A stretch of 64,000 bases of DNA from an uncultured Chloroflexia bacterium (GTDB lineage Bacteria; Chloroflexota; Anaerolineae; Anaerolineales; RBG-16-64-43), in contig CAWADT010000016.1 of the NCBI GenBank assembly GCA_963780865.1, positions 27,793-91,792 on the forward strand, given 5' to 3'. The notes below the pieces were generated by a model that saw nothing but the letters and a program-made list of their open reading frames with translations, made no database searches and had not been told where the DNA came from. The position numbers were made by a program, and so were the translations under genes. This document shows, piece by piece, positions 7,532 through 20,665 of the stretch; position 1 is the stretch's first letter, and the number at the start of each line of letters is the position of its first letter.

Positions 7532-9071
7532 TTAGAAATTTTGGCGCGGGCGATACTGCAACGCCTCAGCCAGATGCGCGGGCGTGATATTTTCAGCGGC
7601 CGAGAGATCGCCGATCGTGCGCGCCACTTTCAGCACGCGGTGGAAAGCGCGGGCCGAGAGCTGCAGCTGCTGCATGGCCGCGCGCATCAGCGCGGAGCCG
7701 GCGTCGTCGAGGCGGCAGTAGCGGCGCACGTCGCCGGCGCGCATTTCCGCATTGCACGTGAGGCCGCTCCCGGCGAACCGCTCGCGGGCCCGCGCCCGGG
7801 CGGCTTCCACGCGGGCGCGCACAGCCGATGAGCTTCGCCCGGCTGCGGATCCGCGAGTTTTGCGAACTCCACCCGCGGCACCTCGACGTGAATGTCGATC
7901 CGGTCGAGCATCGGGCCGGAAATGCGCTTTTGATAGCGGGTGACCAGGGCCGGGGCGCAGGTGCAGGCGCGCACGGAATCGCCGGCGTAGCCGCACGGGC
8001 ACGGGTTCATCGCCGCCACCAGCATGAAGTTGGCCGGGAAGGTGAGCGAGCCGTGGGCGCGGGAAATGGTCACCACTTTGTCTTCCAGCGGCTGGCGCAG
8101 CACCTCCAGCACGCGCGTCCCGAATTCCGGGAACTCGTCCAGGAACAGCACGCCGCGATGGGCCAGGCTGATCTCGCCCGGCCGCGGCCAGTTGCCCCCG
8201 CCCGCCAGCCCGGCGTGCGAAATGGTGTGATGCGGCGCGCGGAACGGGCGGCGGCGGATCAGCGGGACATCCGGCGGGAGCTGGTCCGCTACCGAATAGA
8301 CGCGGGTGATATCCAGCGCCTCTTCGAGGGATAGCCGGGGGAGAATGGACGGCAGCGCCCGCGCCAGCAAGCGTCTTCCCCGCGCCCGGCGGGCCGATGA
8401 GCAATACGTTGTGTCCGCCGGCGGCGGCCACTTCCAGCGCGCGCTTGGCGTGTTCCTGCCCGCGGATTTCTTCCAGCGCGGTAAAGATCGTTCGGCCGTT
8501 GTCTTCTCCCGGCGTTTCTTCGTCGCTCAGGCTCAGCGCCTGGGCGGGCGAGAGCGGGCTTTCGCCGGTGAGGTGCCGGACGAGCGCGACGACATGGTCC
8601 ACCGGATACACTTCCAAATCCGGGATCAGCGCCGCCTCGCGCGCATCGCAGGCCGGGACGAACACCCTCTTCAACCCCAGACGCCGCGCGAGCGCCGTCA
8701 TCGGCAGCACGCCGCGCACGTGGCGGACCGAACCGTCCAGCGAAAGTTCGCCGACCATCAAGGTCTGGTCCAACGCCGTCGCCGGGAATTTGGCCGGAAG
8801 CAACCAGCAACCCGACGGCGATCGGAAGATCGTAGGCCGGGCCTTCCTTGCGCAGATCGGCCGGCGCCAGGTTGACGGTAACGCGCCGGTACGGAAACGA
8901 GAGGCCGGCGTTCTTCACCGCGGCCTGAACGCGTTCGCGGCTTTCCTGCACGGCGGTATCCGGCAGGCCGACAATAACAAACGACGGCATGCCGTTGGAT
9001 ACGTCCACTTCCGTTTGGACCACGGCGCCGTCGAGACCGATCACTGCACAGGATGAAACGCGAGCCAGCAT
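7532..9071 (-). pseudogene. comM: YifB/ComM-family Mg-chelatase-like AAA+ ATPase, broken by three frameshifts
   Basis: N-terminal part in ORF 8289..9071 ([15 protein letters not shown]...[16 protein letters not shown]). Middle part in ORF 7532..8803 ([15 protein letters not shown]...[11 protein letters not shown]). ATPase core in ORF 7687..8370 ([11 protein letters not shown]...LFLDEFPEF...). C-terminus again in the frame of 7532..8803 ([13 protein letters not shown]...ITPAHLAEALQYRP). The shifts are near 8774-8780, 8369-8374 and 7833-7836. Confidence 0.85.
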
Positions 9072-9677: not shown

Positions 9678-9882
9678 CATTTTAGGGACACTCTCCCAAA
9701 CCGGAAATTGAATGCCGCGCATCATGGCACCCTCTCCCGCCGCATGCTGATTGCCCGCGAGGACGGAATAGCAAATATTCTCATTCCTACATAGTCTCCG
9801 GGAAGGTGCGGTTGTTTTCACTTCATTTTCCGCGTGACCGGGTAAGCGCAAAGTCTGAGGGTTGAGGTTTATAATATCCCGC

Positions 9883-10227
9883 ATGTCCGACTATGAAGCG
9901 TTTAACTCTTTTCCGGGCGCCGTTATCCTGTGCACCCCGGATGGAATAATTCAATATATGAACTCTACGGCTGAAGCGGACCTGGCCGAGCATGGAGGCC
10001 GGGCGCTGATCGGATCCAACGTTCTGGATTGCCATCCTGCTCCGGCGCGGGAAAAACTCGAGGCTTTGATGAGGGACCGGCAATCGAACACCTATACGTC
10101 CGAGAAGAATGGGAAGAAGAAGCTTGTCTACCAGTTCCCCCTCTATCGCGACGGCATATATTCCGCCTACGGGGAAATCTCGTTTGAAATCCCCTTTGTG
10201 ATCCCCAATTTTATCCGGACCAATTAG
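9883..10227 (+). CDS. Small PAS-domain protein
   Basis: MSDYEAFNSFPGAVILCTPDGIIQYMNSTAEADL...VLDCHP is a PAS-fold pattern. TATAAT at 9870-9875 lies only 7 nt before the ATG. An alternative TTG start exists at 9862. Confidence 0.65.
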   Translation: MSDYEAFNSFPGAVILCTPDGIIQYMNSTAEADLAEHGGRALIGSNVLDCHPAPAREKLEALMRDRQSNTYTSEKNGKKKLVYQFPLYRDGIYSAYGEISFEIPFVIPNFIRTN

Positions 10228-10327: not shown

Positions 10328-10472
10328 AATGAATGACCGCGCGGTAAGCCGCGCAGTATCCATGGGCGCAACCCCCAAGAACTGCGCAGCAAGCCCCGCA
10401 CTCTTCGATTAATATAGAGGAGTGCGGGGCAAATTGCGGGGTATTCATCATCCCGCGAGAGTGGGATAAATT
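10328..10472 (+). repeat. Hairpin-string repeat element, copy 1 (upstream flank of the rSAM cassette)
   Basis: AATGAATGACCGCGCGGTAAGCCGCGCAGTATC...GGTATTCATCATCCCGCGAGAGTGGGATAAATT. It is about 85-90% identical by eye to 16188-16372, in the same orientation. Confidence 0.75.
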
Positions 10473-10575: not shown

Positions 10576-10938
10576 ATGCTTTGCGAAGTCATCGGTTACA
10601 TTGCCGCCGCCATCCTGATCTTCTTCGGGGTGCTGTTTATCTGGGCCGCCTTCGGGGCGCAATCGCATCCCGAATATATTTGCGTCGGCGTGATCAGCGC
10701 GGCCATCGGATTCGGCCTGATCTTGCTCGCCTCGTGGAAACCGGGCGCCCCCAAACCAGCCGACAACGTCACGCTGAACATCGATCTGCCCGCCAACGTG
10801 AACCTGGATTCGCTGAAATGCAAATCCTGCGGCGGGGCGCTGACGACCGACAACATCAAGATGGTCGCCGGAGCGCCGGTGGTCACCTGCCCATACTGCC
10901 ATACCACCTACCAACTGACCGAAGAACCCAAGTGGTGA
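10576..10938 (+). CDS. Small membrane protein (2 TM) with C-terminal zinc ribbon
   Basis: 120-aa ORF with two hydrophobic helices, then KCKSCGG...TCPYCH (CxxC-x19-CxxC). It is the first gene of the cassette. Confidence 0.75.
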   Translation: MLCEVIGYIAAAILIFFGVLFIWAAFGAQSHPEYICVGVISAAIGFGLILLASWKPGAPKPADNVTLNIDLPANVNLDSLKCKSCGGALTTDNIKMVAGAPVVTCPYCHTTYQLTEEPKW

Positions 10939-10996
10939 CGGACCGACCGGTCGACCCCCGGCCTCCGAACCCGGAATCCGCACCGGAGCGCAGCGT

Positions 10997-12694
10997 ATGA
11001 AAAACAAATTCCTCTTCTCCGCCGTCCTACTGTTTGTGCTGCTGGCATTTCCGATCCGCGCCGCGGCCGCGTCCTATTCGTTCGCCCTCCCTCAGGAAGA
11101 CGTACAAGCGTATTGGAACGCCGACGGAACCCTTTCGATCGACTACACGTTCGCGTTTCAAAACGATCCCGGCGCGAGCCCGATCGACTACGTGGACGTG
11201 GGCATTCCCAATTCCAATTACGATATCTCCAAGGTCACCGCCGACGTCGACGGCTGGCCGATCACCGACATTCAAACCTCGCAGTACGTCTCGGTCGGGG
11301 TCGCGCTTGGATTGGGAGCCCGGGCTATCCCGCCCGGCACCTTAGGCACCGTCCACGCCCACATCGACCGGGTGAGCAGGGTCCTTTATCCGGACAGCAG
11401 CGATTCCAAATATGCCAGCGCGGATTTCTCCCCCACCTGGTTCGATTCCTCCCTTGTGCACGGATCGACGAACCTGAGCGTGACCTTCCATCTGCCCCCG
11501 GGAGTCGGACCCAACGACCCGCGCTATCATAGCAATCCGCAAAATTGGCCCAACGCGAATGCGCCCGCCACGGCGCTGGACAGCAATGGATTAGTGACCT
11601 ATACCTGGCAAAGCGCCGACGCCAATGGGTCTACCCAATACACCTTCGGCGCCTCCTTCCCGGCGAGCGTCGTGCCGGCATCCGCGATCGTCACTCAAAC
11701 CATCTTCGATCAACTCTCCGCGGTTTTGGCGCCGATCCTGGCGGCCGCCGCCCCCTGCCTGTGCGTGTTGGGTTTCTTCTTTTTCATCATTCTCCTGGGC
11801 GTGCTCGGCGCCTGGCAACAGAACCAGCGCAAGAAGGCTTACCTTCCGCCGACGATCGCGATCGAGGGGCACGGCATCAAACGCGGCCTGACCGCCGTCG
11901 AAGCGGCGCTGCTGGCGGAACAACCGCTGGACAGGGTGATGACGATGATCCTCTTCGGCCTGGTGAAGAAAAACGCGGCGACCGTCACCTCCAGCGATCC
12001 GCTCCAACTGAAGATTTCCGATCCCCTGCCTGCGGGGCTCTATCCGTACGAGACGGATTTCCTGGCCGCCTTCAAACCGAATGCCGCGGGTGTTCCAGCC
12101 TCGAACCAACTCGCCCTCCAGCGCAAAGGTTTGCAGGATATGACCATCAACATGCTCAAAAGCCTGCAGGAAAAGATGAAGGGGTTCTCCCGCAAGGAGA
12201 CGCTGGATTATTACAAGACGATCACCGAAAATGCCTGGCAACAGGTGGCCGCGGCGGGAACGCCGGAAGTGAAAGCCCAGGCCCTGGACGACAACCTCGA
12301 ATGGACGATGACCGACCGCGACTTCGAAACCCGCTCGCAGACCGTCTTCGGCGGCGGACCGGTGTTCGTCCCGATTTGGTGGGGGCGCTACAACCCGACC
12401 TTCGGCGGCGGAACGGCCGCGCCGATGCCGTCCCTCGGCGGGCACGGCGGCGCGATCTCGCTGCCGCATCTGCCCGGCGCGGACTTTGCCGGTTCGATCG
12501 TCGGCGGAGTGCAATCGTTCTCGAAAAACGTGATCGGCGATCTGACCGGATTTACCAGCAACATTACAAACAAAACCAATCCCATCCCGGTCGCCACTTC
12601 CTCCGGCGGCGGATGGCACGGCGGCGGTGGCGGCTGCGCTTGCGCGTGCGCGTGCGCCGGTTGCGCCTGCGCCTGCGCGGGAGGCGGACGGTAG
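10997..12694 (+). CDS. DUF2207-like single-pass membrane protein with C-terminal Gly5-(Cys-Ala)n-GGGR tail
   Basis: Signal peptide (MKNKFLFSAVLLFVLLAFPIRAAAA). The N-terminal ectodomain pattern (YSFALPQEDVQAYWNADGTLSIDYTFAF) resembles DUF2207. Central TM is APCLCVLGFFFFIILLGVLGAW. A segment of the ~290-aa C-terminal part (GLTAVEAALLAEQPLDRVMTMILFGLVKK) is reminiscent of the TIGR04222 domain. The protein ends GGGWHGGGGGCACACACAGCACACAGGGR*. Confidence 0.85.
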   Translation: MKNKFLFSAVLLFVLLAFPIRAAAASYSFALPQEDVQAYWNADGTLSIDYTFAFQNDPGASPIDYVDVGIPNSNYDISKVTADVDGWPITDIQTSQYVSVGVALGLGARAIPPGTLGTVHAHIDRVSRVLYPDSSDSKYASADFSPTWFDSSLVHGSTNLSVTFHLPPGVGPNDPRYHSNPQNWPNANAPATALDSNGLVTYTWQSADANGSTQYTFGASFPASVVPASAIVTQTIFDQLSAVLAPILAAAAPCLCVLGFFFFIILLGVLGAWQQNQRKKAYLPPTIAIEGHGIKRGLTAVEAALLAEQPLDRVMTMILFGLVKKNAATVTSSDPLQLKISDPLPAGLYPYETDFLAAFKPNAAGVPASNQLALQRKGLQDMTINMLKSLQEKMKGFSRKETLDYYKTITENAWQQVAAAGTPEVKAQALDDNLEWTMTDRDFETRSQTVFGGGPVFVPIWWGRYNPTFGGGTAAPMPSLGGHGGAISLPHLPGADFAGSIVGGVQSFSKNVIGDLTGFTSNITNKTNPIPVATSSGGGWHGGGGGCACACACAGCACACAGGGR

Positions 12695-12698
12695 CGCC

Positions 12699-14016
12699 AT
12701 GCTCCGCGAGCGTTTCTTCCGCGCCCGGATCAAACCGCCCGCCCCGGGGTTGTATCATTTCCGCCGCGAGGCCGGCGGCGGATTCTCGCGCGTCCACCTG
12801 CGGGTGGACCCGGACGGCCACGGAACACTGGTGGTCGACGCCGCGCGGATCCTGCACCTCAATCCCACCGCGGCACAAATGGCCTACCTGGCCTTGGAAG
12901 GAATCCCGTCCGACGCAGCCGCCCGCTCGATCGCCGGCGAATACCGAGATTCGCGGGCGCAGGCCCGAGGCGGATTTCCTCGGCATCGCGGCCCAGGTGG
13001 ATGCGCTCACCCGCCCCGACGGGCCCTGCCCGGTTTGCGACCTCGAATTGGACATCCGCGCGCCCTTCAGCCACACCCCCTCGGCGCCGTACCGAATGGA
13101 CCTGGCGCTTACCTATCGCTGCCAGAACGATTGCGCCCACTGCTATAACGCGCGGCCGCGATCGTTCCCCGAGCAGCCCGCCGCGGTCTGGAAACGGATG
13201 ATCGACCGCTTATGGGATCTCGGCATCCCGCACATCGTGTTTACCGGCGGCGAACCGACCCTGCGGGGCGACCTGCCCGAGCTGGTAGCCTACGCCGAAC
13301 GAAAAGGGCAGATCACCGGCCTCAACACGAACGGACGCCGGTTGCAAGACCGGACGTTCCTGCAATCCCTGGTGGACGCGGGTCTGGACCACGTGCAGAT
13401 CACGCTCGAGAGCCACGAGGAAGCCCTCCACGATTCGATCGTCGGCGCGCACGGCGCCTGGCGGCAGACGGTGGACGGGGTGCGCAACGCGCTTGACACC
13501 CGCCTCTACGTGATGACCAACACCACGCTTTTGCGAAGCAACACCCCTGCGCTTGAGGAAACTCTCGAATTTCTGGCCGCTACCGGCGTGCCGACCGTGG
13601 GGCTGAACGCGCTGATTTATTCGGGCCGGGGCGCGACGGTGGGCACCGGGCTTTCCGAAGGGGAATTGCATCCGCTGCTCGAGCTCGCGCGGGAGAAGAC
13701 CGCCCGAAACAAACAAAAGCTCATCTGGTATACGCCGACGGAATATTGCCACTTCGATCCGGTCCAGCAGGAATTGGGAGTGAAGGGCTGCACCGCGGCG
13801 ATGTACAACATGTGCGTCGAACCCGACGGCGGCGTAATCCCGTGCCAATCCTATTACCAACCGCTGGGCAACCTGCTCGCGGAGGAATGGAACAGCATTT
13901 GGAACAGCGACCTGGCGGTTTCGCTTCGCGAGCGCCGGCACGCCGCGGAGAAGTGCCGGGAGTGCGCGCTCTTCGCGGAATGCGGCGGGGGATGCCCGCT
14001 GGCTCCGCGCGGCTGA
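12699..14016 (+). CDS. Radical SAM/SPASM enzyme with N-terminal PqqD/RRE-like domain (apparent 1-nt frameshift at 12964-12966)
   Basis: The ATG at 12699 is 4 nt after the preceding stop. N-terminus is MLRERFF...LHLNPTAAQMAYLALEGIPSDAAARSIAGEYR, in the frame of ORF 12627..13148. The rest is in the frame of ORF 11545..14016. CX3CX2C (CQNDCAHC) is at 13120-13143, GGEPTL follows, and the SPASM signature CX2CX5CX3C (CRECALFAECGGGC) is at 13954-13995. Removing one C of CCC 12964-12966 joins the frames. Confidence 0.85.
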
Positions 14017-14091
14017 CCGCCCGCCTTTCTAACAAAGAATTTTCGGTTTGCCGCAGAATAGGAAATCGTAGACCATTGCAGGGAGGTAGGC

Positions 14092-15246
14092 ATGGCAGCC
14101 TTGATTAAATCCTTACGCGATCGATTGCAACCCGTCGCCGCGCTTCCGGCCGGGGTGCATCACTATCAATCCAAACCCTCTTCGCCCTCGCCCTTCCGCC
14201 TTCATCTGCGGCTGGAAACCGACGGCAGCGGCATTCTGATCGTGAACGCGTCAACCATCCTCCATCTAAACCAGACGGCCGCCGAGTACGCCTACCAATG
14301 GGTGAAGGATTTCCCGCCCGACGATGCCGCCAAAGCAATCGCCGCGCGGTACCGCGTCAGCCGCAAGCAGGCCCGGCAGGATTACCAGGATTTCATCCAA
14401 AGGGTGGAGACTATGCTTAATACACCGGACCTGGATCCGGTGATGTATCTGGATTTCGCCCGCGAGGAACCCTACTCCAAGGAACTCTCGGCGCCCTACC
14501 GGCTGGATTGCGCGCTCACCTACCGATTGCCCGAGGGGGAAAACGTTCATTATGCCCCGATCGAACGGGTCAAGAGCGAACTTTCCACCGAGGAATGGAA
14601 GACCATCCTCTCCAAGGCCTGGGAGGCCGGGATCCCGCACGCGGTCTTCACCGGCGGGGAACCAACACTGCGCGAGGATCTGCCCGCGCTTGTGGCGCAC
14701 ACGCAAGCCATCGGGCAGGTCTGCGGTTTGCTCAGCGGCAGCCTGCGCCTCGCTTCGGCCGACTACCTCAAGACCATCCTCGACAGCGGGCTGGACCACC
14801 TGATGTTCCTCTTGCAGCCGGACCGGGAGGAATCCTGGACGGCGCTCGGCAACGCCATGGCCTCCGATCTGTCCACCACCGCCCACCTTACCCTCAACCG
14901 CGCCCTGGCCCCGCGCGCCGGATCGATCCTCGAGCGGCTCGCCAAGCTGGATGTGCGCTGGCTCTCCCTGAGCGCGTCAGACCCCGAAGGCGCGCAAGCC
15001 CTGACGGTCCTGCGCAACCGGGCGGCCGAGCTCGGGCTTTCGCTGCAATGGGACCTGCCCGTTCCGTACTCCCCGGCCAATCCCATTTCGCAGGAGATCG
15101 GCACGCCTTCGGCGGGAGCGGGCAAGGCCTGGCTGTACGTCGAACCCGACGGCGATGTCCTCCCCGAGCAGGGAGTCAACCGGGTGCTGGGCAACTTCCT
15201 GCGCGATCCCTGGGCTCAGATCTGGGCCGCCGCCCGGTCGAAGTGA
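14092..15246 (+). CDS. Cysteine-less paralog of the radical SAM enzyme (pseudo-rSAM) retaining the PqqD/RRE-like N-terminus
   Basis: The 384-aa ORF aligns along its length with the preceding gene (ILHLNQTAAEYAYQWVKDFPPDDAAKAIAARYRVSRKQARQDY; FTGGEPTLREDLPALVA). The CX3CX2C position reads ALTYRLPEGENVHY, and the SPASM cysteines are absent. Only 2 Cys occur in the whole protein. Confidence 0.8.
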   Translation: MAALIKSLRDRLQPVAALPAGVHHYQSKPSSPSPFRLHLRLETDGSGILIVNASTILHLNQTAAEYAYQWVKDFPPDDAAKAIAARYRVSRKQARQDYQDFIQRVETMLNTPDLDPVMYLDFAREEPYSKELSAPYRLDCALTYRLPEGENVHYAPIERVKSELSTEEWKTILSKAWEAGIPHAVFTGGEPTLREDLPALVAHTQAIGQVCGLLSGSLRLASADYLKTILDSGLDHLMFLLQPDREESWTALGNAMASDLSTTAHLTLNRALAPRAGSILERLAKLDVRWLSLSASDPEGAQALTVLRNRAAELGLSLQWDLPVPYSPANPISQEIGTPSAGAGKAWLYVEPDGDVLPEQGVNRVLGNFLRDPWAQIWAAARSK

Positions 15247-15393
15247 ATTAGCGTTCGGCCGGCCGCGTGATGCCGCGGAGCAATCTCCGGGTTCGCGCGC
15301 CGCAAGCGGCAGGGTATTCTTCATCCCGCAAGAACCGAAAAAGCTCCGGCCGCAACCGCAGGACTCAGCTTGTGCCCCGATAAAAATCCATCC

Positions 15394-16158
15394 ATGCCCC
15401 TCTCGATCGAAGAATGGCACAATCGATTTTGCCAACAAGCCCGCTGGACCGAATCCCTGCGGGCGCATTTTTTTTCACGGATGGATTTGGGCCGCCTCGA
15501 TCGAATTCTCGAGGTGGGCTGCGGGACGGGCGCGCTAAGCGCTGCCCTCGCCCGGGACCACCCGGCGGCGAAGGTGAGCGGAGTGGATCTGGATATTCGG
15601 CGGCTGGAGTTCGCCCGGTCGCACGATCCCGCGTGCGCGTATGCCGCCGGCGACGCCCGACGGCTTCCCTTTCCCGCCCGCGCGTTCGACGCGGTTCTTT
15701 GCCATTTCCTGCTGCTGTGGATTCCATCGCCCGCGGCGGCCGTGCGCGAAATGGCGCGGGTGGTGCGCCCGGGAGGCTGGGTGATCGCGCTGGCCGAGCC
15801 GGATCATACCGCTCGGATCGATTTTCCCCTGCCGCTGGAGAGGCTGGGCGGATTGCAAACCGACGCGCTCCGCCGGCAGGGAGCCGACCCCACACTAGGC
15901 CGCCGACTGGCGGAATTATTCGCCAATTCCGGATTGAGCGTCGAGGAAACAGGCATCCTGGGAGCACAGGTTATTCCCGCGGAACCGAGCGGCGGGGATT
16001 CTGAGCTTGAATGGAGGATCCTAAAGGAGGATATCGGCCCCCGGGTTTCGGAATCCGAATGGGAGACTTTCCGCAAAGCCAATTCCGTTTCGCGTGAGCG
16101 CGGTGCACGCGTGTTGTTTGTTCCCACTTTTTATTGTTTTGGCCGGCGAAGGGATTAG
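15394..16158 (+). CDS. Class I SAM-dependent methyltransferase
   Basis: Motif I is ILEVGCGTGALS, followed by a post-I acidic residue (GVDLD) and RVVRPGGWV. The ORF track start is 15370 (TTG). I prefer the ATG at 15394. Confidence 0.8.
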   Translation: MPLSIEEWHNRFCQQARWTESLRAHFFSRMDLGRLDRILEVGCGTGALSAALARDHPAAKVSGVDLDIRRLEFARSHDPACAYAAGDARRLPFPARAFDAVLCHFLLLWIPSPAAAVREMARVVRPGGWVIALAEPDHTARIDFPLPLERLGGLQTDALRRQGADPTLGRRLAELFANSGLSVEETGILGAQVIPAEPSGGDSELEWRILKEDIGPRVSESEWETFRKANSVSRERGARVLFVPTFYCFGRRRD

Positions 16159-16187: not shown

Positions 16188-16372
16188 AATGAATGACCGC
16201 GCGGCAAGCCGCGCGGTATCGAGGCACGCAACCCCCAAGAACTGCGGGGCAAGCCCCGCATTCTTCAAGTAATAAAGAGGAGTGCGGGGCAAGCCCCGCA
16301 TTCTTCAAGTAATAAAGAGGAGTGCGGGGCAAGCTGCAGGGTATTCATCATCCCGCGAAAGCGGGATAAATT
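16188..16372 (+). repeat. Hairpin-string repeat element, copy 2 (downstream flank of the cassette), with an internal 40-bp tandem duplication
   Basis: AATGAATGACCGCGCGGCAAGCCGCGCGGTATC...(GCGGGGCAAGCCCCGCATTCTTCAAGTAATAAAGAGGAGT)x2...GGTATTCATCATCCCGCGAAAGCGGGATAAATT. It is built from GC-rich stems with 4-nt loops (CAAG/GAAA). Confidence 0.8.
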
Positions 16373-16844: not shown

Positions 16845-17624
16845 TTAGTCTCCGATTTCGAAGATCACGCTGAGAGAATACGAGACCTGCCAGGTTCCCA
16901 CCTGGATGGGCACCGAGGAGCCGCCTCCCCCGCCCATTCCGGCCGCGTTGTAACCCTTGTCCACCACTGGAAATGGAACGGATGCGCCGTATTCATTGAT
17001 GGACATCACCCGGACGATTTTCACGCCCAGACCTTTGGCGATTTCATTCGCCCGGGCGATGGCATCGGCTACGGCCAGCGCGCGCGCCTGCGAGACGGCC
17101 TGGGTGGGATCGTTTAGCGAGAAGCTCACCCCACCGACCGAATTCACACCCGCCGCCTGGGCGGCGCCGAGAATGTCGCCCACCTTGGTTAAATCCCGCG
17201 CGGTGACTGTCAGCGAGTGGGTTACGAAGTAATCCGTTTCCCCGGTCGGTTTGCCGCTGACTGGATCGTATTTATCCTGTTGAGTAACAGTGAAATCGCT
17301 CTGGATATCCTCCGCCTTAACCCCCAGCCCTTCGATTGCGGCGACCGCCGCGGTGGCCTTGGCGTTGTTATCGTCCCAGGATTTCGAGATGCTCGGGTCC
17401 TGAGTGATTACGCTCAGGTAAATCGTGGCGATGTCCGGCGCCACTTTGACTATGCCCTCCCCGTTGACCGAAAGCGTGCGGAGGTTCGATTGCGTGGGCA
17501 CGACACAATTCACATTACACGGCGTGCTGGGCAAGGCAGTCGCCGCGGCGGTTCCGGAGCAGCCGGCCAGCAGCAAAAACATCACACTGGCCGCGGCTCC
17601 TAAAATGATCGATTTTCGGTTCAT
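16845..17624 (-). CDS. SIMPL/DUF541-domain lipoprotein
   Basis: Lipobox LLLAGC. LSVNGEGIVKVAPDIATIYLSV...ARALAVADAIARANEIAKGLG is the SIMPL (26-kDa periplasmic immunogenic protein-like) pattern. Confidence 0.8.
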   Translation of the reverse strand: MNRKSIILGAAASVMFLLLAGCSGTAAATALPSTPCNVNCVVPTQSNLRTLSVNGEGIVKVAPDIATIYLSVITQDPSISKSWDDNNAKATAAVAAIEGLGVKAEDIQSDFTVTQQDKYDPVSGKPTGETDYFVTHSLTVTARDLTKVGDILGAAQAAGVNSVGGVSFSLNDPTQAVSQARALAVADAIARANEIAKGLGVKIVRVMSINEYGASVPFPVVDKGYNAAGMGGGGGSSVPIQVGTWQVSYSLSVIFEIGD

Positions 17625-17798: not shown

Positions 17799-17906
17799 AA
17801 TTCTTGCAGCCGGAATCGACAATTCCTTTCGCCGGGTTCCCGATTCTTGTAGCCGGGATCGACGATTCCTTTCGCCGGGTTCCCGATTCTTGTAGCCGGG
17901 ATCGAC
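17799..17906. repeat. 43-bp tandem repeat (~2.5 copies) carrying the TGTAGCCGGGATCGA motif
   Basis: Units start at about 17799, 17842 and 17885 (GATTCTTGTAGCCGGGATCGACGATTCCTTTCGCCGGGTTCCC). The last unit pairs with the first unit of the adjacent 21-bp array to form the palindrome TGTAGCCGGGATCG/ACGATCCCGGCTACA. Confidence 0.8.
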
Positions 17907-18049
17907 GATCCCGGCTACAGCCACGACGATCCCAGCTACAGCCACGACGATCCCGGCTACAGCCACGACGATCCCGGCTACAGCCACGACGATCCCAGCT
18001 ACAGCCACGACGATCCCGGCTACAGCCACGTCGATCCCGGCTACAGATT
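17907..18049. repeat. 21-bp perfect-period tandem array (6 full + 1 partial copies)
   Basis: GATCCCGGCTACAGCCACGAC repeats at 17907, 17928, 17949, 17970, 17991, 18012 and 18033, with G/A variation at one position. There are no spacers. Confidence 0.9.
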
Positions 18050-18421: not shown

Positions 18422-20665
18422 ATGGACAAGCATAAAACGTTTCAAGCGGTGGTGGAAGGGAAAACATTCCTCCTTACCACCGGTGGGCTCGCCGCGCAGG
18501 CGGGCGGAGCCGTTACGGTGAGGGTCGGTGAATCGCTGATCTTCGCCGCCGCCACCATGAGCCGGGAGCCGCGGCTGGGGATCGATTTCTTCCCGCTTTC
18601 GGTGGAATACGAGGAACGAATGTACGCCGGCGGCATCATCCCGGGTTCGTTCTTCCGCAGGGAAGGGCGTCCGTCGGAAACCGCAATCCTGGTCGCGCGC
18701 CTGACGGACCGGCCGCTGCGCCCGCTGTTCCCTAAGGACATGCGCAACGACGTCCAGGTCATCATGTATGCCTTCTCGTCCGACGCCGAGAATCCGCTCG
18801 ACGTCCTGGCGATCAACGCCGCCTCGGCCGCGTTGTCGGTCTCGGATATCCCGTGGGGCGGCCCGATCGGCGCTGTCCGGGTGGGGAGGATCGAGGGACG
18901 CTGGGTGTTCAACCCGACCTACGAAGAAATCAAACATTCGGAACTCGACCTGCGCGTGGCCGCTTCCCGCGAAGCGATCCTGATGGTCGAAGCAGGTGCG
19001 AGTGAATTGCCGGAGCACTTGATGGTGGAAGCCCTCAAGGAGGCGCATCGCGCCATCCAGCCGCTGATCGACGCCCAGGAAAAGATGGCCGCCGAGGCGG
19101 GCAAGCCCAAGCGCGATTATGTCCACTACGCGCTCACCGATAAGGTGCGCGAAGCGGTCTCCAAGAGAGTTGGCACGCGCCTGGCCGAGGCGTTTCGCGA
19201 CGAGCTCGATAAAACCGAGCGGCAGGCGGTGCTGGACGCGATCGAAGGCGAGGTGCTGGCGGGATTCGAAAACGACGCCGACATGGCCGAAGCCGACCTG
19301 CGCGAGGCGTTCTACGATCTGTACCACACCGAAGTCCGCTCGCACATCCTGAATTCCAACCAACGCACCGACGGGCGTGATCCGAAACAGATCCGACCGC
19401 TTTCGGCCGAGGTTGACTTCAGCCCGCGCGCGCACGGATCCGGGCTCTTCGCCCGCGGCGAAACCCAGGTGCTTTCCTTCACCACGCTCGGCACTCCGCG
19501 CGACGCGCAGGAACTCGACGGGCTGGCTCCGATTGACGAAAAGCGCTACCTTCACCACTACAACTTCCCGCCGTTCAGCACAGGCGAAGTGAAGATGCTG
19601 CGCGGGTCCTCGCGCCGCGAAATCGGGCACGGCGCGCTCGCCGAACGCGCGCTGATTCCGGTCCTGCCCCCGCAGGAGGAATTCCCCTATACCATCCGGG
19701 TGGTCTCGGAGGTGCTGTCTTCCAACGGCTCCTCCTCGATGGCGTCGGTGTGCGGCTCCACTCTGGCGCTGATGGACGCCGGCGTGCCGTTAAGAGCGCC
19801 GGTGGCGGGGATCGCGATGGGGCTGGTGAAGGAAGGCGAGAAGTACGTCATCCTCACCGACATCCAAGGCGTGGAAGATCACCACGGCGACATGGACTTC
19901 AAGGTGGCCGGCACGTCCCACGGCATCACCGCGCTGCAGATGGACATCAAAATCAAAGGTGTGACGCCGCAGATCATGGAAGAAGCGCTGGCCCAGGCCC
20001 GCGAAGCGAGGCTCCAGGTGCTGGAAGTGATCCGCGCCTGCATCCCCGCCCCGCGGCCGGACCTCAAGGCGCATGCGCCGCGAATCACGATCCTGAAAAT
20101 CGACCCGGAGAAAATCGGGGCGGTGATCGGCCCGGGCGGCAAAGTCATCCGCAAGATTCAGGAAGACACCGGGGTCAAGATCGACATCGAAGACGACGGC
20201 CGGGTGTACATCGCGGCGGTCGACGGACCGAGCGCGGCGGAAGCCCGCCGGCGCGTCGAGAGCCTCACCGAAACCCCGGTAGTGGGACGCATCTATACCG
20301 GTAAAGTGGTACGGGTTGCGGACTTCGGAGCGTTCGTCGAGATCCTCCCCAACATCGACGGGCTGGTGCACATCTCCCAACTAGATTCCACCCGCGTAGA
20401 AAAAGTGGAAGACGTGGCCAACCTGGGCGATGAATTGACCGTGATGGTGACGGGCATCGATCCGGAAGGCAAAGTGCGGCTGTCTCGCACCGCGGTGCTG
20501 GAAGGTTGGACCGTCGAGGAAGCCGCCGAGCACGACCGGAAGCCGTCCGGCGGGGGCCGCAGCGGGGGCAGTCGCAGCGGACCAAGCTCGCATCGCCCTT
20601 CCGACAGCCGCGGGCATGACCGCGGCGGCGAACACCGGGAACCCTCCGGCCCGCGCAAGCGATAA
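18422..20665 (+). CDS. pnp: Polyribonucleotide nucleotidyltransferase (PNPase)
   Basis: 747 aa with GGAGGAG before the ATG, two RNase PH-like domains, KH (ITILKIDPEKIGAVIGPGGKVIRKI) and S1 (GRIYTGKVVRVADFGAFVEI) domains, and a basic Gly/Ser/Arg tail. Confidence 0.97.
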   Translation: MDKHKTFQAVVEGKTFLLTTGGLAAQAGGAVTVRVGESLIFAAATMSREPRLGIDFFPLSVEYEERMYAGGIIPGSFFRREGRPSETAILVARLTDRPLRPLFPKDMRNDVQVIMYAFSSDAENPLDVLAINAASAALSVSDIPWGGPIGAVRVGRIEGRWVFNPTYEEIKHSELDLRVAASREAILMVEAGASELPEHLMVEALKEAHRAIQPLIDAQEKMAAEAGKPKRDYVHYALTDKVREAVSKRVGTRLAEAFRDELDKTERQAVLDAIEGEVLAGFENDADMAEADLREAFYDLYHTEVRSHILNSNQRTDGRDPKQIRPLSAEVDFSPRAHGSGLFARGETQVLSFTTLGTPRDAQELDGLAPIDEKRYLHHYNFPPFSTGEVKMLRGSSRREIGHGALAERALIPVLPPQEEFPYTIRVVSEVLSSNGSSSMASVCGSTLALMDAGVPLRAPVAGIAMGLVKEGEKYVILTDIQGVEDHHGDMDFKVAGTSHGITALQMDIKIKGVTPQIMEEALAQAREARLQVLEVIRACIPAPRPDLKAHAPRITILKIDPEKIGAVIGPGGKVIRKIQEDTGVKIDIEDDGRVYIAAVDGPSAAEARRRVESLTETPVVGRIYTGKVVRVADFGAFVEILPNIDGLVHISQLDSTRVEKVEDVANLGDELTVMVTGIDPEGKVRLSRTAVLEGWTVEEAAEHDRKPSGGGRSGGSRSGPSSHRPSDSRGHDRGGEHREPSGPRKR

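Follow-up and report, generated by a model that had tools for sequence, protein, structure and literature searches.

What does a peptide-maturase-like enzyme modify when no conserved small peptide is encoded beside it? This question is raised by a five-gene cassette in an uncultured Chloroflexia bacterium (GTDB lineage Bacteria; Chloroflexota; Anaerolineae; Anaerolineales; RBG-16-64-43), located within a stretch of 64,000 nt that was analyzed as a whole and is referred to here as the window (assembly GCA_963780865.1, contig CAWADT010000016.1, positions 27,793-91,792, forward strand). The cassette encodes, all on the plus strand, a 120-aa zinc-ribbon membrane protein (10576-10938), a 565-aa membrane protein that ends in alternating cysteine and alanine (the tail protein, 10997-12694), a radical S-adenosylmethionine (rSAM) enzyme with a SPASM domain and a RiPP recognition element (RRE; RiPP, a peptide made on the ribosome and modified after translation) (12699-14016), a paralog of that enzyme without iron-sulfur cysteines (14092-15246), and a class I SAM-dependent methyltransferase (15394-16158). 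A preliminary description of this DNA had listed five co-directional genes with these motifs, and the open reading frame (ORF) list and translations place all of them at these coordinates. On balance, we favor the reading that the cassette is one functional unit in which the RRE-guided rSAM/SPASM enzyme and its catalytically dead paralog modify cysteines of a cytoplasmic membrane-protein tail.

Conservation of the cassette and its Cys-Ala tail

In total, 167 loci (numbered L001-L167, with distant representatives L161-L167 among them) were compared. A genome sample of 80 species genomes was drawn by alignment of the tail protein, and its members are all labelled Chloroflexota, mostly Anaerolineae, and include the cultured Leptolinea, Bellilinea, and Levilinea; flanking sequence was examined up to 8 kb on each side of these loci. 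A metagenome sample of 80 loci was drawn independently by alignment of the rSAM enzyme, at 59-79% identity. Profile searches used Pfam, NCBIfam release 20, PADLOC (for defence genes), and Rfam.

Across the 80 genome loci the recurrent gene order is zinc-ribbon, tail, rSAM, paralog, and methyltransferase. The zinc-ribbon gene lies upstream of the tail gene in 75 of 76 loci, the rSAM gene lies downstream of it in 66 of 71, and the paralog is present in 64 of 65. Seen from the rSAM gene, the tail protein is encoded upstream in all 44 metagenome loci that hold at least 1.9 kb of upstream DNA, the tail or its motif is found in 65 of 66 loci, and the paralog follows in 57 of 59. The preliminary description had proposed such profiling as a test of its link between the rSAM pair and (Cys-Ala)n neighbors, and both that link and the suspected co-occurrence of the zinc-ribbon gene held up. 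The first ATG of the rSAM frame falls 0-60 nt past the tail-gene stop in most loci, and in the window the ATG at 12699 stands 4 nt past it, as first reported. At least 318 stretches of a one-genome-per-species collection contain the cluster with its genes in the same order. With motif and gene order repeated across more than 160 independent loci, the cassette is not a chance arrangement.

The methyltransferase had been considered a less certain member. Of the 51 loci with both this gene and the paralog gene, 37 have the two abutting or overlapping, with ORF ends -213 to +140 nt apart. The methyltransferase gene also stays beside the tail gene in the rearranged clusters L162, L163, L166, and L167. 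These distant clusters differ in content and order. L161 and L164 consist of the zinc-ribbon, tail, and rSAM genes alone; L162, L166, and L167 follow the order zinc-ribbon (where present), rSAM, paralog (where present), one or two tail genes, and methyltransferase, with L166 reduced to rSAM, tail, and methyltransferase genes and no detectable zinc-ribbon gene; and L163 has the zinc-ribbon gene, two tail genes, and the rSAM gene, with the methyltransferase gene on the other strand. Labels within protein clusters suggest hosts beyond Chloroflexota, including Planctomycetota and archaea: the 90% cluster of the L161 tail protein holds Aigarchaeota proteins from metagenome-assembled genomes (MAGs), the cluster of the L166 tail protein holds a Candidatus Brocadiia (Planctomycetota) MAG protein, and a neighboring gene in L164 shares a cluster with a Bathyarchaeota protein. 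The conserved core is composed of the zinc-ribbon protein, the tail protein, and the rSAM enzyme, with the paralog and methyltransferase as frequent additions. Such persistent linkage, despite rearrangement and across domains of life, strongly supports the view that the genes form one functional unit.

The tail protein was modeled with AlphaFold2 (AF2). The model has a signal peptide, a confidently predicted beta-sandwich ectodomain (aa 29-222), one long transmembrane (TM) helix (about aa 245-273), and a C-terminal half made up of a winged-helix-like unit (about aa 300-340), a helical bundle, and a disordered end (aa 532-565); the predicted local distance difference test (pLDDT) score of the Cys-Ala tail is below 50. 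The signal peptide, together with a single predicted TM helix that is followed by RKK, would place the C-terminal half in the cytoplasm. The only hits of a fold search, to the generic N-terminal beta-sandwich known from M1 aminopeptidases and ribophorin-like oligosaccharyltransferase subunits, gave no functional lead. More than 4127 homologs exist, and an exhaustive search of cluster representatives returned 870 clusters at 50% identity (E <= 1e-3). The window protein itself matches no Pfam or NCBIfam family. It had initially been called DUF2207-like (PF09972/PF20990), a label we reject: DUF2207_C appears in 2 of 34 relatives at E 0.17 and in the window protein not at all. TIGR04222 gave no match to the window protein up to E 10 and weak matches to 5 of the 34 relatives (best E 2.5e-5), which suggests distant relatedness at most. 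Some members of the family (P0042, P0049, P0062, P0089, and others; about 770 aa) have a doubled beta-sandwich ectodomain with the cytoplasmic part and tail unchanged.

The C-terminal end of the tail protein is GGGWHGGGGGCACACACAGCACACAGGGR, of which the Cys-Ala tail proper, CACACACAGCACACAGGGR (aa 547-565; 12635-12691), follows a Gly-rich linker. All 120 best homologs listed, down to 40% identity, end in this sequence or in a variant that differs by one unit. Among 159 tails from the compared loci and the window, the commonest forms have a first block of four units (120 tails), five (16), or three (15), or begin with CVCA (3); the tail can be written (CA)3-5-G-(CA)3-GGGR. The motif persists down to 31% protein identity in clade-specific forms, namely (CA)3-G-(CA)4-GGGR, (CA)5-GGGR, a form with Ser for the central Gly, and a three-block archaeal form, CVCACVSCACVCACVSCACACAGGGAG. 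Across the tails compared, the cysteines show no variation. At the DNA level, 154 tails comprise 149 distinct sequences in which synonymous codons vary at every position, using both Cys codons, all four codons for Ala and for Gly, and all six for Arg. As the amino acids are invariant while synonymous codons vary freely, the constraint acts on the protein and not on the DNA; the tail is under purifying selection and is no low-complexity run.

A leader-like segment (aa 490-531; 12464-12589; LPHLPGADFA...FTxxxTxxTNPxP) precedes the tail by 20-75 residues. Within it, P493, G494, A498, F519, T520, T527, N528, P529, and P531 are invariant in 34 diverse relatives, making the segment a candidate recognition sequence. 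Tandem tail genes, each with its own Cys-Ala tail, stand beside a single rSAM gene at L066:6145-9659, L103, L111, L163:273-3571, and L167:7001-10657. A variable number of units and blocks (3-5 units, and up to three blocks in archaea) and tandem duplication are features typical of substrates.

The rSAM enzyme, its paralog, and the remaining genes

The rSAM gene of the window is 1318 nt long, a length not divisible by three. Its PqqD/RRE-like N-terminal part (LHLNPTAAQMAYLALEGIPSDAAARSIAGEYR; 12699-12965) is read in the frame of position 12699, which stops at 13148, while the radical SAM core with CQNDCAHC and the SPASM domain with CRECALFAECGGGC (12967-14016) are read in the +1 frame. Alignment to the 92%-identical ortholog of L002 places one surplus base in GGCCCGAGG, at about 12962-12967. 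The preliminary description had identified all three motifs correctly and had taken the gene to be intact, the frameshift having gone unnoticed. A programmed frameshift was rejected, given that the rSAM orthologs, including the one at 92% identity, have a single intact reading frame. The simplest explanation is an indel-prone assembly, which is likely because a neighboring ComM/YifB-type Mg-chelatase-like gene (7532-9071, minus strand, about 4 kb upstream) is also broken over three frames; real decay in the source genome is the alternative. The Pfam matches in that gene are correspondingly in pieces (ChlI 2-77; ChlI 77-119 with Mg_chelatase 2-38; Mg_chelatase 37-206; and Mg_chelatase_C).

Profiles were scored against the repaired, frameshift-corrected rSAM protein. 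Both Radical_SAM (PF04055; E 1.8e-24, 87.2 bits against a gathering score of 29.5) and SPASM (PF13186; E 6.6e-10, 39.6 bits against 21.5) match it. In 32 orthologs the cysteines of the SAM cluster (143, 147, and 150) are invariant, as are eight in the SPASM region (352, 366, 374, 384, 421, 424, 430, and 434), a number that would suffice for two auxiliary clusters. PqqD (PF05402), the profile that stands for the RRE, matches 30 of the 32 orthologs (best E 3.9e-9), in line with the RRE fusion first proposed, and its match to the repaired protein of the window falls short of E 0.1. Among solved structures the best match by sequence is SkfB (E 3.9e-23), with SuiB also among the matches. The nearest family profiles are PqqE, NirJ, AhbC/D, MftC, and SkfB, at similar scores. 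Assignment to a named NCBIfam rSAM family (PqqE, NirJ, AhbC/D, MftC, GeoRSP, HxsC, SkfB, AlbA, SbtM, or WgkB) was rejected, with scores far under the cut-offs for the window enzyme and for the divergent clusters alike.

The paralog (384 aa; 14092-15246) scores at the Pfam cut-off for PqqD (23.4 bits) and weakly for Radical_SAM. In the window it contains two cysteines in all and no CX3CX2C motif, and both CX3CX2C and the SPASM cysteines are missing from all 62 orthologs that were obtained as an intact, single ORF; the sole CX3CX2C-like match is in the split, frameshifted copy of L060. In the Planctomycetota-type cluster L162 the paralog has lost CX3CX2C and kept CX2CX5CX3C. The orthologs retain a WLYVEPDGDVLPxQG motif and a GGE motif. 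The AF2 model (pLDDT 79.6; predicted template modeling score 0.81) has an RRE-like domain, with strands within residues 21-59 followed by three helices (61-110), a (beta/alpha)6 core, and a C-terminal hairpin, its end resembling a SPASM remnant without cysteines. The RRE-like N-terminus and the lack of iron-sulfur cysteines that had been attributed to this protein are both borne out. Structurally it comes closest to the RiPP maturases PqqE, SkfB (second by fold), and SuiB, and every NCBIfam equivalog scores below its cut-off. The identity of the last gene (15394-16158) as a class I methyltransferase, also part of the original annotation, is supported by Methyltransf_11 (E 1.4e-22).

The zinc-ribbon protein (10576-10938) has two hydrophobic segments, a presumably cytoplasmic CKSC...CPYC ribbon, and a C-terminus, EEPKW, that is encoded at 10921-10935 and could be a docking motif or an alternative substrate. 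Across 73 aligned orthologs the pattern C..CG...GAP.V.CP.C..YQ..EEPKW, running to the stop, is nearly invariant; 45 of the 73 end in QLTEEPKW, the archaeal copy of L161 ends in EEPLW, and EEPRW occurs once. The protein belongs to no Pfam or NCBIfam family. The preliminary description mentioned neither this end nor the PAS gene upstream of the cassette.

That PAS gene (9862-10227, plus strand) encodes a PAS-only protein of 121 aa (PAS_4 E 5.5e-6) and is an accessory member: 22 of the 80 genome loci carry a homolog within the cluster, in most cases immediately behind the rSAM gene, and several metagenome loci have one as well. In one sub-clade (L004, L009, L014, L023, L036, L045, L054, L070, L074, and others), further genes are inserted between the rSAM, paralog, and methyltransferase genes, encoding a DSP-type phosphatase-like protein (17 loci), a C_GCAxxG_C_C protein (10 loci), a membrane HExxH protein (14 loci), and a 334-aa protein without a family (12 loci). 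Redoxin or thioredoxin reductase-like genes stand beside the cluster in L162 and L163; together with the C_GCAxxG_C_C protein, these neighbors may point to a thiol or redox theme. A tRNA-like sequence directly follows the methyltransferase gene in at least six loci (L031, L059, L062, and L075 named) and casts the ORF shadow GRGAVRLARLHGVQEVGGSNP.

A repeat of about 145 nt with GC-rich, hairpin-like arms brackets the block from the zinc-ribbon to the methyltransferase gene in the window. The upstream copy (10328-10472) is 89% identical to 16188-16292, 5860 nt away, and the downstream copy (16188-16372) contains an internal 40-nt tandem duplication; the two are direct repeats. The repeat fragment said to separate the paralog from the methyltransferase gene was located at 15297-15342 and belongs to family D5. 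Two adjoining tandem arrays (43 nt x 2.6 and 21 nt x 6.9, 95% matches; 17800-18046) sit between a SIMPL/DUF541 gene (16845-17624, minus strand) and a polynucleotide phosphorylase (PNPase) gene (18422-20665, plus strand). The SIMPL gene was rejected as a member of the cassette, being found beside it, among the 167 loci, solely in the closest relative, L002. An Rfam scan for a riboswitch or leader returned a distant tRNA as its single match.

Candidate substrates and competing explanations

In the mechanism we propose, the tail protein would be held in the membrane by its one TM helix, with the beta-sandwich outside and the helical domain, Gly-rich linker, and (CA)n-G-(CA)3-GGGR inside. The rSAM/SPASM enzyme, with one SAM cluster and presumably two auxiliary [4Fe-4S] clusters, would use its N-terminal, PqqD-type RRE to bind the leader-like segment that precedes the tail, probably in complex with the catalytically dead, RRE-bearing paralog. 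It would then abstract hydrogen atoms at the tail cysteines or neighboring residues, repeatedly along the Cys-Ala units. The likeliest products would be thioether cross-links of the sactipeptide or ranthipeptide type or cysteine-derived, thiooxazole-type heterocycles like those of SbtM, either of which would create a membrane-tethered thiol-, metal-, or redox-active module. The methyltransferase could perform a follow-up methylation, and the 2-TM zinc-ribbon protein may serve as a membrane partner or adaptor. The identification of the tail as the substrate is a claim in which we place slightly better than even confidence.

Several observations weigh against this proposal. First, the window's own copy of the rSAM gene is frameshifted. 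Second, the nearest rSAM profiles (PqqE, NirJ, AhbC/D, MftC, and SkfB) cannot separate one chemistry from another. Third, the EEPKW end of the zinc-ribbon protein is as conserved as the tail, and could be the substrate in its place. Fourth, a Cys-X-Cys run also fits a metallothionein-like metal site or an iron-sulfur site that is left unmodified. Finally, in five loci (L007, L037, L056, L060, and L073) the tail gene is followed by the paralog, no rSAM gene lies within the flanks of up to 8 kb, and the tail is intact.

Four of these five loci and L076 are somewhat nearer to each other than to other loci, and L076 has a divergent, second-type rSAM enzyme in an inverted module of its Anaerolineales cluster, which suggests that the rSAM gene was relocated or replaced in the five loci and not lost; the alternative is that the tail has an rSAM-independent role. 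The L076 module (11400-14210, minus strand) encodes a 544-aa rSAM/SPASM enzyme of the type found in Brocadiia-like clusters, with a Cys-rich C-terminal extension, GGGCSGCSGSCGTGN, and also a 333-aa homolog of the cytoplasmic domain of the tail protein without tail or ectodomain.

The best surviving competitor is that the enzyme acts on the C-terminus of the zinc-ribbon protein (...YQLTEEPKW), introducing a Lys-Trp or other Trp-centered cross-link, and that the tail is an unmodified metal- or cluster-binding element. The near invariance of EEPKW in the 73 orthologs extends to the distant clusters, and the zinc-ribbon gene is present both in 75 of 76 genome loci and in the reduced, three-gene archaeal version. 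SuiB is among the matches by sequence and by fold, and RRE-bearing rSAM/SPASM enzymes of the StrB/SuiB type offer a model for such a cross-link; two RRE-bearing proteins could moreover serve two C-termini. However, the lysine is replaceable (EEPLW in L161, EEPRW once) and the tail cysteines are not, L166 has no detectable zinc-ribbon gene, and where genes are duplicated beside a single rSAM gene it is the tail gene and not the zinc-ribbon gene. A fixed five-residue end also resembles a docking motif more than a core peptide. These differences favor the tail, as does the variable number of its units and blocks, and its Gly-rich linker and predicted disorder would suit a substrate. We consider modification of EEPKW rather unlikely.

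It is likewise unlikely, in our estimate, that the tail is an unmodified metallothionein-like, iron-sulfur, or other thiolate metal site, or a sulfur-relay site, with the rSAM pair acting on a small molecule, a cofactor, or another protein and merely co-regulated with the membrane proteins. Cys-X-Cys runs are classic metal-binding motifs, and the tail has this clustered pattern. The closest NCBIfam profiles include those of the cofactor enzymes NirJ, AhbC/D, and PqqE, the five loci above keep the tail without an adjacent rSAM gene, and redox-type genes occur in or near clusters (C_GCAxxG_C_C inside 10, Redoxin or thioredoxin reductase in L162 and L163). Yet the RRE is conserved on both the enzyme and its paralog, unlike in cofactor-type SPASM enzymes such as NirJ and AhbD, which to our knowledge have none. 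Adjacency of 93-100% in both directions, outlasting rearrangement, and the lack of any other conserved candidate substrate gene at these loci also argue against this reading.

A third explanation concerns the role of the cassette more than its chemistry, and is compatible with tail modification: that it is an anti-phage or conflict system similar to HXS, in which the rSAM pair HxsB/HxsC and the small HxsD are encoded with the effector HxsA, a protein with His-Xaa-Ser repeats that is matured by the rSAM enzymes (PMC13128918). HXS, now characterized, is the closest characterized architecture, as both systems join two rSAM or rSAM-like proteins and a small protein to a full-size protein with short repeats (PMC13128918). 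In contrast to HXS, the repeats of the cassette are Cys-Ala units at the extreme C-terminus of a membrane protein, with no His-Xaa-Ser repeats; its second rSAM protein lacks iron-sulfur cysteines, both paralogs carry an RRE, and a methyltransferase belongs to the set. The tail is also predicted to be cytoplasmic and not periplasmic, and the scores for HxsC (70.7 against a cut-off of 267.9 bits) and HxsC4 (85.7 against 500) place the enzyme outside both families. PADLOC gave only generic matches, viperin for the rSAM enzyme and mad2 for the methyltransferase, and nothing for the tail, zinc-ribbon, paralog, or PAS proteins. Defence islands typically have a patchy, fast-evolving distribution, and the cassette keeps one gene order in the at least 318 stretches mentioned above, with highly conserved members. 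A conflict role is in our view very improbable.

That the cassette is a classical RiPP cluster with an overlooked precursor gene is the least credible explanation, for although RRE-bearing rSAM/SPASM enzymes usually act on small peptides, the genes abut in most loci and clustering of all intergenic ORFs of 18-110 aa from 71 loci yielded no conserved small ORF, the clusters being merely shadows of accessory genes and of the tRNA-like sequence, in agreement with the initial impression that no small precursor ORF is present.

Relation to known maturation systems and significance

The closest conceptual parallel to tail modification by the cassette is found in TIGR04222 membrane proteins, on whose Gly/Ser/Cys-rich tails genetically linked oxidative enzymes dependent on multinuclear non-heme iron (MNIO, DUF692) are proposed to act; the thiooxazole made by MNIO enzymes serves copper binding in bufferins (PMC12452194). 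In both cases a RiPP-type maturase is suspected of acting on the unstructured, Cys-containing, Gly-rich tail of a membrane protein, and both cases rest on proposal. The cassette differs in that its enzyme belongs to the rSAM/SPASM family, its tail is a fixed motif and not a loose low-complexity sequence, its protein has a signal peptide, an ectodomain, and one TM helix with the tail predicted to be inside and not periplasmic, and its hosts are mainly Anaerolineae and not Actinomycetota. No MNIO match (DUF692, MbnB_TglH_ChrH) was found by Pfam in the cassette genes of the window, four of which match other families and two none, nor among the called genes of L161-L164, L166, and L167; the scan covered those loci and the window.

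Two groups of rSAM/SPASM enzymes offer chemical models. SbtM turns Gly-Cys into a thiooxazole and oxidizes the beta-carbon of Cys or Sec flanked by small residues, as in GGUG (PMC9204691). Cysteines flanked by small residues are likewise what the tail offers, making this a plausible chemistry for C-A-C-A, although SbtA is a small peptide, the enzyme reaches only 56 of the 350 bits that the SbtM profile requires, and the cassette contains no selenocysteine. The thioether maturases SkfB, AlbA, and CteB (sactipeptides), PapB (ranthipeptides), and QhpD, which acts on the QhpC subunit, combine RRE, rSAM, and SPASM domains with Cys-rich substrates as the cassette appears to do. PapB modifies repeated units iteratively. 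The scores of the window enzyme are nevertheless below cut-off for SkfB (56.6 against 300), AlbA (61.6 against 850), and StsB (67.4 against 625), the substrate candidate is a 565-aa membrane protein, and alternating Cys-Ala shows no obvious acceptor pattern; a precursor gene like those of sactipeptide and ranthipeptide clusters was absent from the 71 loci. The pairing of an rSAM/SPASM enzyme with a homolog lacking the SAM-cluster cysteines is itself known only from the NCBIfam families GeoRSP (TIGR04303) and the pseudo-SAM/SPASM family TIGR04347, to which the cassette does not belong by score (GeoRSP_rSAM 96.3 against 400; pseudo_SAM_Halo 110.5 against 525 for the rSAM enzyme and 35 against 525 for the paralog).

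Full-text literature searches found no paper describing the cassette, and Pfam and NCBIfam release 20 hold no family-specific model for its core proteins, in agreement with the preliminary description, which knew of no account of an rSAM pair linked to a (Cys-Ala)n tail. The system is an uncharacterized, widespread variant of rSAM/SPASM maturation whose substrate is most likely the membrane-protein tail. As a tentative extension of this reading, which we regard as possible but doubtful, the Cys-Ala tail may be turned, in Bacteria and Archaea, into a protein-derived structure of a new kind, perhaps thiooxazole-type heterocycles in a row or a thioether ladder, optionally methylated, that would act as a membrane-tethered metal- or redox-active cofactor built by chemistry hitherto known only from small peptides (RiPPs).

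RRE-dependent rSAM/SPASM maturation has nearly always been studied on small secreted peptides, whereas the only conserved candidate substrates of this cassette are the C-termini of two membrane proteins. The question of what is modified is directly testable, given an invariant 19-residue motif and the cultured hosts Bellilinea caldifistulae, Levilinea saccharolytica, and Leptolinea sp. HRD-7. Should the tail prove to be modified, this would represent a new post-translational modification of a full-size protein and a second, enzymatically unrelated route to maturase-modified, Cys-rich membrane-protein tails, hitherto proposed for MNIO enzymes alone. It would also give a first way into the function of a large hypothetical-protein family from abundant, poorly understood bacteria.

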